From an uncultured SAR86 cluster bacterium (lineage in GTDB: Bacteria; Pseudomonadota; Gammaproteobacteria; Magnimaribacterales; D2472): DNA of 59,089 nt. The notes beneath the pieces were generated by a model. The model ran no database searches. It was not told the origin of the DNA and was given only the letters and a program-made list of their open reading frames with translations. Location of the stretch: assembly GCA_902514105.1 (NCBI GenBank), contig CABXPU010000004.1, positions 1 to 59,089 on the forward strand, written 5' to 3'. Both the position numbers and the translations under genes were made by a program. Positions within the stretch are counted from its first letter, which is position 1. Every line of letters begins with the position of its first letter. This document shows positions 12,841 to 18,075 of this stretch, piece by piece.

Positions 12841-13395
12841 ATGAGCCAATATTTTATCTTCATACCCAATCTTTTATCTTTGATGAGGATAGGCCTTGTG
12901 TATCCGATCCTAAATGCGATATACATTGGTGATTACTTATTAGGATTAATATATTTTATTATTGCATCTCTTACAGATGCTTTAGATGGATTTTTGGCTA
13001 GGAGAATGAATTGGTATACAGAGCTAGGTAAGATTTTAGATCCTGTGGCAGATAAACTCCTTTTGATTGGAACAATCTTTGTCTTATGGGTTAATAACTT
13101 TATACCTCTTTTCGTTTTTATTATATTAATAAGCAGGGATGTATTAATTCTACTTGGAGCAGCTATGCATATGACATTTGTAACGAGTAATGCTCCTAAC
13201 CCAAATCTTTTAGGAAAAATAACTACAGGTGTTCAAATAGCATATATTATTCAAATTTTAATATTACAAGCGCTAGGAGCAAACATTCATATTCTCTGGC
13301 TTGATTGGTTAACAATAATAGTAACAATTTTAAGCCTTGGTGTTTATGGGTCTGAATGGTTTAAATCTATTAAAGGTCAGCATGACAAACCCTAG
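12841..13395 (+). CDS. CDP-alcohol phosphatidyltransferase family protein
   Basis: PNLLS, TDALDGFLARR...GKILDPVADK signature. Confidence 0.9.
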   Translation: MSQYFIFIPNLLSLMRIGLVYPILNAIYIGDYLLGLIYFIIASLTDALDGFLARRMNWYTELGKILDPVADKLLLIGTIFVLWVNNFIPLFVFIILISRDVLILLGAAMHMTFVTSNAPNPNLLGKITTGVQIAYIIQILILQALGANIHILWLDWLTIIVTILSLGVYGSEWFKSIKGQHDKP

Positions 13396-13887
13396 GCAAT
13401 TAACATTTCCATTTAGCATAGATAAAAAATCTTCAATTAAAAAATTTTTTATTCCAAAAGGTTCCGAAGCTCTCATTAATGAATTATCAAATAAAAATGG
13501 AGATGATATTTTCTTAAGAGGATATAAAGGAAGCGGAAAAACATATCTTCTCCAAGCAGCCTGCAATGATCTTAATAATCTTAAGTTTGCTACAAGCTAC
13601 ATACCTTTAAATGAAGCTATTAAATTGGACACAAAATTACTTGATGGGCTCGAATCCTTAGATTTGGTTTGCATAGATGATATAGATAAGATTTCCTCTA
13701 ATAAGGACTGGGAGGTTGCATGTTTTAACCTTATCAACAGATGCAATGAATCTAGTTGCAGATTAATCTTTAGTTGCAAAGAGATTTACCCTCAGCAATA
13801 GATTTAATTAAAAGGATTGATGAATATTCAATGGGATCGAAACGCAGAATAACGATCCCATTAATTAAAGAATTACTATCGAATTAA
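13382..13887 (+). pseudogene. hda: DnaA regulatory inactivator Hda, internally deleted and frameshifted
   Basis: The N-part (QLTFPF clamp motif, GSGKT, VCIDD) stops at 13801. The Hda C-terminus RDLPSAIDLIKRIDEYSMGSKRRITIPLIKELLSN* is in the -1 frame from about 13780 to 13887. About 60 codons between them are absent. Confidence 0.8.
13830..13862. repeat. 10-bp perfect inverted repeat, possible terminator between convergent hda and sppA
   Basis: AATGGGATCG-N13-CGATCCCATT. Confidence 0.45.
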
Positions 13888-13890
13888 GTT

Positions 13891-15726
13891 TTAATTCAAT
13901 AAATCACATTCGCTGCAATAAGAAATAGGCTTCAATTGACCGTTTTGTTGAACAAGTTGATCAAAGGCTTTTAATTCCTTATATATAAGCTTTCTAGTTG
14001 AGCTAAATGGAATATCTAATTTAATAAAACTAAGATCAAAAAATACTTCCCATGGCTCTAGATCCCTTTTGTAATATTTTACTTTATAGCTGTCTAATTC
14101 ATTGGATTCAGCAACATGAGCTATCACATCATTGAGAGTACCAAGCTTATCGACTAAACCTAATTCTTGGGCTTTATTTCCAGCCCAAATTCTGCCCCCA
14201 GCAATTTTTAAGACTTCTTCATATTCCATATCTCTATTATTGGCTACTTGAGACACAAATGTTTCATATATACCATCAACATTAGATTGAAATAAATCTT
14301 TCATATAATCAGGCATAGGTTCAGAAGGATCCCATTCACCCATTTTTGTAGAACTTACTCCATCAACATTTATTCCTGCCCAATCCAAAGCTCTTCCTAA
14401 GGTAGGAACTATTGAATAGACACCAATTGAGCCAGTAAGAGTATTTTCTTCAGCCCAGATTTCAGTTGAGTTTGTTGTAACCCAAACACCTCCTGATGCA
14501 GCGACATTTCCCATAGAAGTGTAAACCTTTCTGTCAGTTGATTTGAAATCATCTAAAGCATTTAATATTAGCTCAGAAGCATATACATCTCCGCCACCAC
14601 TATTTACTCTTAATATAAGAGCCTTAACATTTTTGTCATTCTTAGCTTTATAGATTTTATCAACAATAGAATCTGACCCAGCAGTCCCTTGCGACTCCTG
14701 CCCAGTCATAATGATGCCTTCAACATTTATAATTGCAATAATGTCTTTAGCTTCGTCATCAAAACTTGAATCTAATGTAGATAAATAATCATCATATGAG
14801 ACTCCTTCAGGCCATTTATCGTTATCTTTATCTTCACTCCCAAATTCTTCAATCATATAATCTCTTATTTCTTCATGCTTCATAAGCCCATCAACTAATC
14901 CAAGATTTAGAGCAACTCTTGGGAAATCTCCCTTTTCATCTTTAGTTAAAATATCAAAATTATCTCCATAGGATTGTATTGTTCCTGGCTTTAGATTTCT
15001 TCCAGCTTCCATTTTTTGTTTGTATGTATCCCATAAAGGATTAGCAAAAGCATTCCATGCTATTTTGTCATTTTCTGACATGTCATTCCTTGTATAGGGC
15101 TCAGGACCAGATTTAAAGTCTCCTGCAGTAAATATCTCATAGTCAATCTTTACATTATTGTAAAATTCTTGCATATACTCACGTTTTCTTGAAAAACCTG
15201 AAGGCATAATACCGCTATAGCTATTTGTATTTAGATATAACTCTGTAGCTTGAGAAGCTACCAAATAATCACTGGTAACCAAACCGTCTGTATAAGCGAT
15301 TACACGAATATCGTTATCAACAATTTTTTTCACAGCATCTGCTATAGCAAGGGAAAAAACCTGACCTCCCATAGATAAGTTATCAACATCAAGATATACA
15401 GCTTTCAAATTTGTATCATTTGCTACTGCATCCAATACTCTTAAAACATCTCTAATTGCATAGACATTAGGCTGACTATCTCCAGCTAAAATTATGCTTA
15501 CTGGATCAGGTGGACCACTTTGAGGTTGATCTACTAAAACGCCAGCAAGTTCTAGGTATAAAATTTTATCTTTTGTATCTATCTCTTCATCTCCAGAGAA
15601 AGCACCTGCAATACCTCCTAGTAGAGAAAAAGTAACAAATAATAAAAATATTAAAGTAAAACCAGCAACAAATATTCTTCTAGCTTTATTTAAATAACCC
15701 TCAATCCATATAAACATACTCTTCAT
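13891..15726 (-). CDS. sppA: Signal peptide peptidase SppA (protease IV, long form)
   Basis: Tandem S49 domains; GDFKSGPEP (catalytic Lys), LRVNSGGG, AASGG (catalytic Ser), TGSIGV; SD AAGGAG. Confidence 0.93.
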   Translation of the reverse strand: MKSMFIWIEGYLNKARRIFVAGFTLIFLLFVTFSLLGGIAGAFSGDEEIDTKDKILYLELAGVLVDQPQSGPPDPVSIILAGDSQPNVYAIRDVLRVLDAVANDTNLKAVYLDVDNLSMGGQVFSLAIADAVKKIVDNDIRVIAYTDGLVTSDYLVASQATELYLNTNSYSGIMPSGFSRKREYMQEFYNNVKIDYEIFTAGDFKSGPEPYTRNDMSENDKIAWNAFANPLWDTYKQKMEAGRNLKPGTIQSYGDNFDILTKDEKGDFPRVALNLGLVDGLMKHEEIRDYMIEEFGSEDKDNDKWPEGVSYDDYLSTLDSSFDDEAKDIIAIINVEGIIMTGQESQGTAGSDSIVDKIYKAKNDKNVKALILRVNSGGGDVYASELILNALDDFKSTDRKVYTSMGNVAASGGVWVTTNSTEIWAEENTLTGSIGVYSIVPTLGRALDWAGINVDGVSSTKMGEWDPSEPMPDYMKDLFQSNVDGIYETFVSQVANNRDMEYEEVLKIAGGRIWAGNKAQELGLVDKLGTLNDVIAHVAESNELDSYKVKYYKRDLEPWEVFFDLSFIKLDIPFSSTRKLIYKELKAFDQLVQQNGQLKPISYCSECDLLN

Positions 15727-15748
15727 AGCTTTCTCCTTATTGTTGTAA

Positions 15749-15820
15749 CTAAACTAAAAAATAAAAATACAGTATTCCGGATATTAAGACCGTCACACTA
15801 ATTAATAGACTAATAAACAT
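15749..15820 (-). CDS. 23-aa single-TM micropeptide (uncalled)
   Basis: MFISLLISVTVLISGILYFYFLV*; GGAG 8 nt before the ATG; starts 2 nt after the XRE stop and fills the gap to sppA. Confidence 0.5.
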   Translation of the reverse strand: MFISLLISVTVLISGILYFYFLV

Positions 15821-15822
15821 AA

Positions 15823-16017
15823 TTAATTCTCCGTGTAAAAAATATCTTCAATTCTCTTGTTAAAAAATTTTGCTATCTTCATAGCCAGGGGGAGAGATGG
15901 ATCAAATTTTCCATTCTCAATAGAGTTGATAGTCTGTCGACTAACATTAAGGTTTGAACCAAAAGCATCTTGGCTCAATTTTAATTCTTCTCTAAGATTT
16001 TTAAGATTGTTCTTCAT
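15823..16017 (-). CDS. XRE-family HTH transcriptional regulator
   Basis: MKNNLKNLR..LSQ...VSRQTINSIENGKFDPSLPLAMKIAKFF...IEDIF, a 64-aa stand-alone HTH_3. Confidence 0.93.
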   Translation of the reverse strand: MKNNLKNLREELKLSQDAFGSNLNVSRQTINSIENGKFDPSLPLAMKIAKFFNKRIEDIFYTEN

Positions 16018-16477
16018 TAATATCTATTGCATACATTTGTTTATAAACTTTTCTTGCACCTATAGATATCCCAACGCTATACAAAAGAAAGTACTCAAAA
16101 AATACAAAATCAAAACCCATAAAGACTTCTAGCGGCCATGCAACAAGAAAACCGACTATCCAAAAGAAATTAATTCCCCAAATATTAGCTTTGATATTAA
16201 AATCAACAAAACCTTCATCCTGTCGTTTCATAAAATTATTCATTAACTTTACACTCAGAAAAAAGCATACGATTGCAACTGGGTAAAGGTATGAATAAAT
16301 CCATTCCAAAGTATTAACTCCCCCTAATATTCTCTCACCCCAAATACCACCTAAAATTACACCAGATATTCCTGAAGCTATAGTGAGAAGAGCTATGCCA
16401 GCTCCATATTCTTTTTTATCCTGTTTAGACAATGAAGACCATTTAATATTTAAACCGCCCATGTTTACTTCTGCCAT
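16001..16477 (-). CDS. 4-TM membrane protein coupled to the XRE regulator
   Basis: Four hydrophobic segments, RQDE loop motif, SD GAGG, 17-nt overlap with the XRE gene. Confidence 0.8.
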   Translation of the reverse strand: MAEVNMGGLNIKWSSLSKQDKKEYGAGIALLTIASGISGVILGGIWGERILGGVNTLEWIYSYLYPVAIVCFFLSVKLMNNFMKRQDEGFVDFNIKANIWGINFFWIVGFLVAWPLEVFMGFDFVFFEYFLLYSVGISIGARKVYKQMYAIDINEEQS

Positions 16478-16501
16478 TATTTATTCCTCTTTGTAATTTG
16501 T

Positions 16502-16600
16502 TTAAAGGATTTCTTTCTCTTTGAGAGTTTCTATTAATTTATGCAAACGCACAAAGGCTACCATCCCAAAAACAAATCCTAATATTCCAAAAGTCTCCAT
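16502..16600 (-). CDS. 32-aa single-TM small protein (uncalled)
   Basis: METFGILGFVFGMVAFVRLHKLIETLKEKEIL*; SD GGAG; first ORF after the consensus promoter. Confidence 0.7.
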   Translation of the reverse strand: METFGILGFVFGMVAFVRLHKLIETLKEKEIL

Positions 16601-16631
16601 AAAGTCTCCAATTTAAATTATTTCTTAGGAT

Positions 16632-16673
16632 ATTATATGTAAAGTAAACTTTACATGTCAAGGTAACTTTACA
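16632..16673 (-). promoter_or_regulatory. Consensus sigma70 promoter with two tandem 18-bp palindromic operators
   Basis: TTGACA (16661-16656)-18 bp-TATAAT (16637-16632). The spacer is the palindrome TGTAAAGTAAACTTTACA; a second copy TGTCAAGGTAACTTTACA covers the -35. Confidence 0.9.
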
Positions 16674-17006
16674 TTAATTATTCGAATGAATAGTCTTTGG
16701 ACCGTACATAGAATGAATAAATAAGATGATGATAAAAGAAATCTCAAAGATATCGAGAAGAGGCCCATTAATACCAAAAACCCTTAGGGAGGCAAGCAGA
16801 AAATATATTAATAAGATAAAACAAAAGCTTTGATAAGCTTTAATCGATTTTTTTAGTAAAAAAGGTATGAAGCTTAATAGGGGCAATGACCAAATTATAA
16901 AAACTATATAATTAATTCTCCCAGTAAAAACTATTAAAAGTTTTACAAAAATTAAGCTAACAATCAATCCCATGGTTATTTGAGTAAATGTTTTAACTTT
17001 AAGCAT
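16674..17006 (-). CDS. DUF2069-like membrane protein
   Basis: LPLL...KAYQSFCFILLIYF pattern; directly downstream of wrbA. Confidence 0.7.
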   Translation of the reverse strand: MLKVKTFTQITMGLIVSLIFVKLLIVFTGRINYIVFIIWSLPLLSFIPFLLKKSIKAYQSFCFILLIYFLLASLRVFGINGPLLDIFEISFIIILFIHSMYGPKTIHSNN

Positions 17007-17592
17007 TTAGTTTTTGAATAATTTTTGCCATTCTTTTGCCTGTCTCAAATGCAATTTTATATTCATCAGGAGTAATGTTAGAACTGGAATTAAAACTTTC
17101 TACATGGGATGGGCCATAAGGGGTTCCGCCAGCTTCAGTTTTATTAAGTTCTTTTATGGAGTAAGGGGAGCCAACAACCAGCATGCCTTGATGCAGTTGA
17201 TATGTTAATAAGTTCATTAATGTTAACTCCTGATCACCATGCATTGAACCTGTTGAAGTGAAGGCGCACCCAGGAACACCCTCCAATGAATTTGATGTCC
17301 AGATATCACCGGTTGTATCTAAAAAATACTTTAATGGGGCTGCCATAGATCCAAATCTTGTAGGCGATCCCAAAGCAAGACCTGAACAATTAATTAGTTC
17401 TTCTTTTGAGCAAAATATTTCACCTTTTTCAGGAATAAGAGGCTCGCTTGATTCGTTATTAGGAGATACTCTTGGAACAGTTCTAATTTTTACATCTAAA
17501 TTTAATTCTTCTGCGCCATCTGCAAGCGCATGAGCTAAATTTTTAACTGCACCGCTAGCAGAATAAAATAGTATTAATAAATATTTATCCAT
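16999..17592 (-). CDS. wrbA: NAD(P)H:quinone oxidoreductase WrbA
   Basis: RTVP, LGSPTRFG, FTSTGSMHG.QE, GGTPYGPSH. Confidence 0.92.
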   Translation of the reverse strand: MDKYLLILFYSASGAVKNLAHALADGAEELNLDVKIRTVPRVSPNNESSEPLIPEKGEIFCSKEELINCSGLALGSPTRFGSMAAPLKYFLDTTGDIWTSNSLEGVPGCAFTSTGSMHGDQELTLMNLLTYQLHQGMLVVGSPYSIKELNKTEAGGTPYGPSHVESFNSSSNITPDEYKIAFETGKRMAKIIQKLNA

Positions 17593-17625
17593 TATTTTTT
17601 ATCTTCTTTGTAATATTATATGCAC

Positions 17626-18075
17626 ATGAAAAATAAAATTATATCGTTATTCTTCTTGTTTGTTTTATTTGCATGTCAGAAGGCTGATATAGATATTCAT
17701 AATGCTGATGATATATTTTCATCAGAATTAAAAGGTCAGTGGGTAATGATAAATTATTGGGCCGATTGGTGCCCGTCATGTATAAAAGAAATGCCCGAAC
17801 TTATTGCTTTTGATAGAGCCAATAATGATGTTCAAGTTTTTGCTTTTAATTTTGATCAATTAGAAGGAGAAGATTTAACTTATGAAATTAAAAAATTTGG
17901 TGTGAAAATTCCATCTATACTTTCTCATCCAAGAGATATTTGGGGAATAGAATCTCCTGCTACTCTTCCCGCAACTTATTTTATTAACCCTGAAGGAGAG
18001 CTTGTGCAAAGCCTATTTAGACCTCAAACTCAGGCGTCTTTAGAAGAAATTTTAGAAATTCTAAAAAAGGGTTAA
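17626..18075 (+). CDS. TlpA-family thiol:disulfide reductase lipoprotein
   Basis: Lipobox LFAC; INYWADWCPSCIKEMP; LPATY. The second ATG (17626) is the likelier start. Confidence 0.88.
   Translation: MKNKIISLFFLFVLFACQKADIDIHNADDIFSSELKGQWVMINYWADWCPSCIKEMPELIAFDRANNDVQVFAFNFDQLEGEDLTYEIKKFGVKIPSILSHPRDIWGIESPATLPATYFINPEGELVQSLFRPQTQASLEEILEILKKG

Follow-up and report, generated by a model that had tools for sequence, protein, structure and literature searches.

A probable CylR1/CylR2-like membrane protein and XRE pair with a palindromic candidate operator at sppA and a predicted envelope regulon in the SAR86 lineage

The stretch of DNA analysed here, called the window below, comprises 59,089 nt from an uncultured SAR86 cluster bacterium (assembly GCA_902514105.1, contig CABXPU010000004.1). 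On its minus strand, at 13891-16673, it carries sppA, the gene of a signal peptide peptidase, preceded by a two-gene module (the cassette) in which a membrane protein of no known family is followed by a 64-amino acid (aa) CylR2-like protein of the XRE type. We consider it rather likely that these two proteins form a phosphorelay-free pair of the CylR1/CylR2 type, which would control an autoregulated sppA operon together with a regulon of envelope genes. Among the observations in its favour, a palindromic candidate operator overlaps the promoter of the module, it co-occurs with the module among related genomes, it is kept at sppA where module and sppA are separated, and its other copies lie next to envelope protease and efflux genes.

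Gene organization of the locus

Five open reading frames (ORFs) follow one another on the minus strand within 13891-16673, encoding in this order 32, 158, 64, 23 and 611 aa (Table 1). The core of this arrangement is the two-gene module formed by the 158-aa membrane protein and the 64-aa XRE protein. A sequence-only reading of the same DNA had placed the five ORFs on one strand, each with a Shine-Dalgarno site or a coupled start, with no terminator between them and a perfect promoter upstream, and on all these points it was borne out. In the sequence, GGAG-type ribosome-binding sites can be read ahead of four of the five genes (those of 32, 158, 23 and 611 aa). The XRE gene begins inside the membrane gene, the two sharing 17 nt. 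A terminator scan detects no terminator-like site on the minus strand from 16673 to 15727; its sole match on this strand lies inside sppA (14189-14166). The promoter scores 12/12 in a consensus scan and is the only site above 10/12 among the 14 promoter-like sites of the region 13500-17800. Since shuffles of this region contain on average 20.5 such sites, their number is ordinary and only the 12/12 perfection is unusual.

The XRE protein and its candidate operator

The 64-aa protein contains a single HTH_3 domain (Pfam, E 2e-15, residues 5-58). Among proteins of known structure it resembles CylR2 (PDB 1utx, E 2.1e-15, residues 3-61) and, over its full length, a 65-aa regulator of the 'PbsX family' (PDB 9k3w, E 1.1e-17). 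By its size of about 65 aa, its one HTH_3 domain and its full-length similarity it belongs with the CylR2-like single-domain XRE repressors. Orthologues are 52-84% identical. One stretch, VSRQTINSIE (V25-E34), is invariant in all 14 aligned orthologues, which fits a conserved operator; by analogy to CylR2 we take it to be the recognition helix.

The sequence-only reading overlooked two abutting 18-bp palindromes, O1 and O2, which cover the -35 hexamer and the spacer of the promoter and share the pattern TGTMAAG-N4-CTTKACA. The final six bases of O1 are the -35 hexamer itself, and O2 occupies the entire spacer as far as the -10 box. Promoter and palindromes are identical almost letter for letter across six genomes of the window's genus, the promoter and O2 being unchanged in 6/6.

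To follow this candidate operator we used a survey of 61 genomes, made up of the window's assembly (G000), of 24 genomes from three sister families and of 36 from the window's own family, which span 10 genera (g1 to g10, g1 being that of the window); the genomes measure about 1-1.5 Mb, with 34% G+C. In the pattern search, perfect operators were present in 27/36 family genomes vs 0/24 of the sister families, and the reversed pattern used as control had no match in 61/61 genomes. Nine family genomes are devoid of a site; g5 with its four genomes and g10 with its three are wholly among them, and these two genera also lack the cassette. Sites without a detected cassette occur in G002, G007, G008 and G011, whose assemblies are 80-92% complete. 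Regardless of genomic context, all cassette loci examined, from eight genera, have an operator of the same pattern 5' of the membrane gene. The same holds for 2/2 metagenome loci of high-GC organisms, each with two sites having one or two mismatches where shuffles would give 0.01-0.13 per locus. The predicted operator thus belongs to the module, as the co-occurrence of both indicates. Sites were also scored with a weight matrix trained on the perfect sites, including those of the window and those 5' of sppA in the genomes with a split arrangement described below. The pattern searches, the one-mismatch sites (C19:6228 and that of G009) and the negative scores are independent of this training.

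A separate feature was seen in g9, where the leader of about 120 nt between operator and membrane gene (locus L019, G016) contains a long inverted repeat, AACGTTTGCATT ... AATGCAAACGTT, and no small ORF. This repeat may be an RNA hairpin element.

Link between the module and sppA

A functional link of the XRE gene with sppA, proposed by the sequence-only reading, is now backed by two arrangements found among the surveyed genomes. In the fused one, the cassette stands directly 5' of sppA on the same strand; a synteny search found it in 15 genomes of four genera (six in g1, four in g7, two in g8, three in g9), so that XRE-sppA adjacency is not unique to the window genome. The gap between the two genes, 33 nt long in g7, carries no operator in 15/15 fused loci (all scores at most -13), and a consensus scan of this gap in the window and in G006 finds no promoter-like site. 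The split arrangement occurs in nine genomes from a further four genera (g2, g3, g4 and g6), with the cassette adjoining an unrelated convergent 336-aa gene and sppA directly following a DUF2069 gene. There, the operator reappears in the DUF2069-sppA intergenic region of 7/9 genomes, six times perfect and once with a single mismatch (G009), with two sites 5' of sppA in G010; in G025 an eighth site follows closely on DUF2069, where the contig ends, and G027 was not placed. Read from the sequences, these regions also have a -10-like hexamer about 17 nt after the right half-site. In genomes where no cassette was found, the DUF2069-sppA region scores at most -11.9 in 5/5 cases (the four of g5 and G036).

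From these counts, sppA either lies behind an operator-controlled cassette or has its own operator in 22/24 cassette-bearing genomes. Because the operator is kept at sppA when the module is elsewhere and is not found there without the module, sppA is a conserved predicted target of the XRE repressor.

The occurrence of the cassette in at least two genomic contexts within the family would also be expected of a selfish or mobile two-gene element, a toxin-antitoxin system or a prophage immunity remnant, located by chance beside sppA and using the palindrome for its own autoregulation only. Small XRE proteins are indeed often antitoxins or phage repressors, and NCBIfam gives weak matches of both kinds. 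These matches are nevertheless far under their cut-offs (35.6 vs 71.65 bits and 26.5 vs 47.7 bits for the best antitoxin models), and the 64-aa protein fits no curated antitoxin model. Moreover, operators stand at unlinked promoters of envelope genes in many genera, the operator of sppA persists when the cassette is elsewhere and is missing when no cassette is found, and the loci read show no integrase, repeat or phage gene flanking the cassette. We therefore hold a selfish origin to be very improbable. For a type II toxin-antitoxin system with the XRE protein as antitoxin, considered separately, the sub-cut-off models, a partner that is a four-helix membrane protein of no family and the operators at unlinked promoters led to its rejection.

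The identity of SppA itself is clear. The 611-aa protein scores 362.9 bits against TIGR00705 (SppA_67K, cut-off 311.45), contains two Peptidase_S49 stretches (E 4.5e-51) and aligns with Escherichia coli protease IV (PDB 3bez/3bf0, E 2.2e-72), MGNVAASGG standing opposite MGGMAASGG and FKSGPEP opposite YKSAVEP in 3bez. The score above the cut-off, the tandem S49 domains and the motifs of a Ser-Lys dyad place it in the 67K type. We take the aligned AASGG and KS-x-x-EP motifs to hold the catalytic Ser and Lys.

Two observations concern the far end of sppA. On the plus strand at 13337-13887, an Hda/DnaA-like gene is divided into a 154-aa ORF (13337-13801, Bac_DnaA) and, overlapping it in a different frame, a 37-aa ORF (13774-13887). 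The gene may be split, frameshifted or misassembled. It converges with sppA, and a 9-10 bp hairpin containing G+C (GGGATCG ... CGATCCC, 13820-13875), which was not flagged by the terminator scan, lies between the two gene ends and may serve as a two-way terminator.

Predicted regulon

The regulon was read from 23 further perfect sites and several one-mismatch sites in 12 genomes, the neighbouring genes being named by Pfam. All 23 perfect sites are at most 350 nt 5' of a gene start, and the recurrent neighbours (Table 1) are such that the operator would appear to mark protease and efflux genes of the envelope as a conserved group. Only four sites of the window genome, which is 68% complete, exceed 20 bits: O1 and O2 at the cassette, C25:8659 between the genes of an S9 peptidase and a TonB receptor, and C19:6228, which has a single mismatch and lies 22 nt before tolC. 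The reversed genome has none above 12 bits. SppA, which the sequence-only reading saw as the possible effector of the system, keeps its place as a conserved target, but as one of several and not as the sole effector.

We also considered whether the module replaces the sigma-E/RseA envelope response. This was rejected, RseA_N being found in 14/22 family genomes searched, in nine of them above the cut-off. Independently of the above, one locus (L055, G034:C1) shows an S9 peptidase gene apparently broken into 91-aa ORF pieces on the left of the operator (locus position 2501) and an intact TonB-receptor gene across from it.

Table 1. Features of the sppA locus in the window and genes lying next to operator copies in the genera g1 to g4 and g6 to g9
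Feature	Position	Strand	Remarks
Sigma-70-type promoter	16632..16661	-	TTGACA 16661-16656, 18-nt spacer, TATAAT 16637-16632
Candidate operator O1, 18-bp palindrome	16656..16673	.	TGTAAAGTTACCTTGACA on minus strand
Candidate operator O2, 18-bp perfect palindrome pattern	16638..16655	.	TGTAAAGTTTACTTTACA on minus strand
32-aa small protein	16502..16600	-	operon leader; one hydrophobic helix and charged tail
158-aa four-helix inner-membrane protein	16001..16477	-	XRE partner, candidate signal sensor
64-aa CylR2-like XRE repressor (predicted)	15823..16017	-	single HTH_3 domain
23-aa hydrophobic ORF	15749..15820	-	shortened copy of a 45-46 aa small membrane protein
sppA, 611 aa, 67K-type signal peptide peptidase	13891..15726	-	tandem S49 domains
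TolC-type outer-membrane channel			predicted operator target in g1, g3, g7, g9
Secreted S9 peptidase divergent from TonB-dependent receptor			predicted operator target in g1, g4, g6, g7
ABC ATPase-HlyD-MacB operon			predicted operator target in g1, g7, g8
HlyD-like adaptor then AcrB-family pump			predicted operator target in g7, g9
SPFH/Band-7 protein			predicted operator target in g1
PQQ-like 199-aa protein with divergent cupin			predicted operator target in g1, g2
M16 peptidase			predicted operator target in g8
F420H2-quinone-reductase-like protein			predicted operator target in g9

The membrane protein and its pairing with the XRE protein

The partner of the XRE protein is modelled by AlphaFold with a predicted local distance difference test (pLDDT) value of 84.3, as a short N-terminal hairpin and four helices (18-43, 58-84, 88-120 and 126-157). 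Like the 32-aa and 23-aa proteins, it is assigned to no family by Pfam, where no match is above threshold, or by NCBIfam, where no model matches. Below threshold, DUF2157 appears weakly in 8/17 members (best E 7e-05) and DUF3796 once (E 0.0039). The ESM Atlas returns only unnamed clusters (at most 0.88), and Foldseek finds no fold match in the PDB at E 0.001 or better (best 0.73). A word-based protein search retrieves close relatives only, 13 proteins, and a profile search of 1.84 billion cluster representatives 79 relatives, some from high-GC organisms. Weak matches inside ORFs of 427-534 aa, or spanning about residues 13-100 (e.g. G000:C13, G020:C1, G023:C4, G037, G051, G053 and G031), were set aside; as they sit in long ORFs or have partial coverage, we judged them to be unrelated membrane proteins and not cassettes.

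Orthologues of the 158-aa protein are 71-75% identical within the genus and 23-31% in other genera. A small XRE gene is located directly 3' of the membrane gene in 24/24 cassette loci of the family, and in 2/2 high-GC metagenome loci the homologue is followed by an overlapping small XRE gene. Residues S15, L16, D20, K21, Q86 and D87, located in the N-terminal segment and in the loop between helices 2 and 3, are invariant, and the first outer loop varies in length. Since the invariant segments are the richest in Lys and Arg, the positive-inside rule, on which this topology is based, makes them probably cytoplasmic.

A second pair of this kind is found in G002 (L088, 1075-1692) and likewise in G007 and G008, where a 129-aa DUF6249 membrane protein is followed by a 72-aa XRE protein. 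The latter is 44-48% identical to that of the window, carries the helix VSRKSINAIE and has a different upstream repeat, of GTAAC type. Such pairs suggest that a membrane protein plus a small XRE protein is a recurrent design in this lineage. When these three congeners were searched for the XRE protein of the window, only the different, DUF6249-paired one was found; their assemblies being 80-87% complete, the absence of the cassette cannot be concluded.

Small hydrophobic ORFs

Both micropeptides of the window are probably real genes, without being core parts of the module. The ORF following the XRE gene is intact in 6/6 congeners. It encodes 45-46 aa in the other five, with a conserved K-x-x-P-Y-L-D motif, a SFLI end and a nonsynonymous to synonymous ratio (pN/pS) of 0.39-0.65, and has lost about 22 codons in frame in the 23-aa copy of the window. 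In g8 and g9, a two-helix hydrophobic ORF of 69-71 aa lies at the same position between XRE gene and sppA, whereas the hydrophobic ORF of g7, of 27 aa, is in the leader. The 32-aa ORF is present in the operon leader of the window and G005 only, i.e. 2/6 congeners (pN 0.16 vs pS 0.46 between the two copies); the other four leaders are about 30 nt long and lack it. Its homologues (50-72% identity) stand alone in seven further genomes, including one from a sister family, with no operator nearby (best score at most 1.7 bits). No hydrophobic small ORF is present in the nine split cassette loci. Conservation of the small ORFs, on which the sequence-only reading depended in part, therefore holds for the post-XRE position, open in 6/6, and for the pN<pS of both, but fails for the leader ORF, in 2/6, and in the split loci. 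Lacking in split cassettes, and for the 32-aa ORF in most leaders, these proteins are accessories of the fused arrangement rather than parts of the sensing core.

Stand-alone members show that the 32-aa protein belongs to a family of 32-42 aa, made of one hydrophobic helix and a tail rich in Lys and Glu, which is conserved in two bacterial families (L090-L096, e.g. G007:C2:21814-21909). These genes usually follow a 378-aa dehydrogenase-like gene, and neither Pfam nor NCBIfam has a match for them.

In the sequence-only reading, the membrane protein and the micropeptides might control the XRE protein and SppA might destroy the peptides, forming a feedback loop that senses the peptide load of the membrane. 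Spelled out, the small transmembrane peptides would be the signal: with SppA saturated they would build up and influence both the membrane protein and the XRE protein, until SppA degrades them. Such a loop accords with the presence of a small hydrophobic ORF between the XRE gene and sppA in 11/15 fused loci (g1, g8 and g9), and of the leader ORF in g7, as well as with the constraint on the g1 ORF in its six genomes. It also accords with the properties of Bacillus subtilis SppA, which is described as degrading membrane peptides, aiding resistance to lantibiotics and cationic peptides and being inhibited by its operon partner SppI (PMC7568657). The nine split loci, though, retain the operator and the sppA site and have no such ORF. 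Besides, the post-XRE copy is shortened in the window, the 32-aa ORF is in the leader of only 2/6 congeners and stands alone, without operator, elsewhere, and the post-XRE peptides of g1 and of g8/g9 have no detectable similarity (best E 0.047). We consequently regard the peptide loop as improbable, and the claim that the micropeptides are core control parts is not upheld.

Proposed mechanism

In our preferred reading, the pair would signal without a phosphorelay, in the manner of CylR1/CylR2. Its 64-aa XRE protein would most likely bind as a dimer to the 18-bp palindrome TGTMAAG-N4-CTTKACA. As one half-site doubles as the -35 hexamer, the bound protein would block RNA polymerase. The single consensus promoter would drive the 32-aa, membrane, XRE, 23-aa and sppA genes as one autoregulated unit, and the XRE protein would repress, through the same operator, its own operon and the other promoters of the regulon. 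The four-helix protein would be the input device: it may sense that the membrane is disturbed, be it by membrane-active compounds, by hydrophobic peptides or by signal peptides left behind, and relieve repression by holding or altering the XRE protein through its conserved cytoplasmic segments. As the predicted regulon includes a signal-peptide peptidase, periplasmic peptidases, two TolC-dependent exporters and an SPFH protein, hydrophobic peptides or membrane-active compounds are the signal that we infer.

A more specific version of this mechanism is possible, although we hold it to be doubtful. The pair would gauge how heavily the inner membrane is loaded with hydrophobic peptides. Inside the bilayer, the four-helix protein would detect signal peptides that have escaped clearance or membrane-active peptides of foreign origin, titrate the repressor and so raise SppA, periplasmic peptidases and TolC-dependent exporters at once, and the small hydrophobic proteins encoded between XRE gene and sppA would be built-in substrates of SppA that tune the feedback.

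Control of the XRE protein by the membrane protein had been suggested by the sequence-only reading. It is plausible in view of the invariant pairing, of the conserved residues predicted to be cytoplasmic, of a predicted complex that lends weak support and of the precedent of CylR1/CylR2. The same elements can be read differently: the XRE protein would be an ordinary autorepressor responding to a cytoplasmic cue, and the membrane protein a regulated product, for instance a resistance or immunity protein. Pairs of a repressor and a membrane protein conferring resistance are known from other repressor families, and the 158-aa protein has short outer loops, no recognisable sensory domain and no known family, besides the weak complex prediction. 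This alternative has to account for a 64-aa single-domain XRE protein that leaves no room for a ligand-binding domain, for a pairing with adjacent or overlapping stop and start that is kept in all family cassettes and in the two distant high-GC loci, even where all other targets have moved, and for the location of the most conserved residues of the membrane protein in predicted cytoplasmic segments. We think it unlikely.

Several points weigh against the sensor-repressor mechanism and have to be set beside the evidence above, the first being that the membrane protein might be a product of regulation rather than a sensor, as just discussed. The predicted complex of the XRE and membrane proteins scores 0.36 (runs 0.39, 0.36 and 0.36) vs 0.00 for the best control, with a partner pLDDT of 84 and at least 90% agreement of contacts between runs, and so passes a mark reached by 116/157 solved complexes and 2/215 mismatched pairs; passes at or below 0.60 nevertheless comprise just 18 of the 157 solved complexes and both mismatches, a range in which wrong passes outnumber right ones, save for pairings that were likely beforehand. 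Related genomes are kin, and the counts given here are not independent trials. The high scores of sites on which the weight matrix was trained are partly so by construction. Several sites lie between divergent genes, which makes the controlled gene ambiguous (S9 peptidase or TonB receptor; tolC or parE); in G010 thiC takes the place of parE and tolC stays the common neighbour. The HlyD-like and PQQ-like orthologues of the window genome carry no operator site, from which we conclude that membership of the regulon is lineage-dependent. Lastly, metatranscriptome contigs from four of 21 marine runs are confined to 14036-15530 in sppA, and none bridges the XRE-sppA junction.

Comparison with known systems

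The closest parallel is the CylR1/CylR2 pair of Enterococcus faecalis. CylR2 is described as a repressor that sits as a homodimer on an inverted repeat in a promoter, and CylR1 as a co-transcribed membrane protein with three predicted helices, needed for induction by a lantibiotic subunit. A review presents the signalling from CylR1 to CylR2 as not understood more than a decade after the first account of the pair. Both systems have a one-domain XRE protein of about 65 aa and, encoded just before it in one transcript (a predicted one here), a small membrane protein with several helices. They also have in common an inverted repeat in the promoter region, here a candidate site, the lack of a kinase or phosphorelay and a link, proposed here, to a membrane-active peptide. 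They differ in that the present pair belongs to a Gram-negative marine lineage and that its membrane partner, compared with CylR1 by description only, has 158 aa, four helices and no detected family vs three predicted helices. Their targets also differ: chromosomal envelope housekeeping genes (sppA, tolC, peptidases and efflux pumps) are predicted here, vs the cytolysin toxin operon.

With SppA and SppI (YteJ) of B. subtilis the locus would share co-transcription of sppA with a membrane-protein gene and an SppA tied to defence against membrane-active peptides (PMC7568657). SppI is, however, a post-translational inhibitor in complex with SppA, whereas the membrane protein described here is paired with a predicted DNA-binding repressor and its control would be transcriptional. 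It also stays with the XRE gene, not with sppA, in the nine split genomes. Neither the 158-aa protein nor the small ORFs fall into a Pfam or NCBIfam family that would place them with SppI/YteJ, the comparison being made through families and not with the SppI sequence itself.

The mechanism proposed here would resemble that of SdpR and SdpI in B. subtilis, in which a membrane protein, SdpI, detects a membrane-active peptide and captures the co-transcribed autorepressor, whereby the operon is induced; SdpI is an immunity protein as well. SdpR belongs to the ArsR family, unlike the XRE protein proposed here to be titrated. Regulators of the TetR/MarR type such as AcrR and MarR also have a palindromic operator over the promoter and control efflux pump genes and tolC, and their inducers are bound in a ligand-binding domain. 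The present system differs from them by a 64-aa XRE protein devoid of such a domain, by its membrane-protein partner and by the proteases in its predicted regulon.

The sequence-only reading knew of no description of this arrangement. A membrane protein plus a small XRE protein does have an analogue in CylR1/CylR2; the literature found, from a search that left subscription journals aside, does not link such a module to sppA. To our knowledge, the regulation of sppA in proteobacteria is little described, the gene of B. subtilis being reportedly a member of the sigma-W regulon. With the present module, sppA would gain a specific candidate repressor, and a single regulator of 64 aa may suffice for genomes of about 1-1.5 Mb to bring protease, peptidase and efflux genes under common control. 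The lineage would also provide a second, Gram-negative example of a membrane-partnered single-domain XRE repressor, which offers as handles a sharply defined operator, a conserved predicted regulon pointing to the likely signal, and invariant, probably cytoplasmic residues. If the pair does gauge the load of membrane peptides, streamlined marine bacteria would possess an envelope stress response of a kind not recognised before, and signalling of the CylR1 type could be studied in a tractable model.

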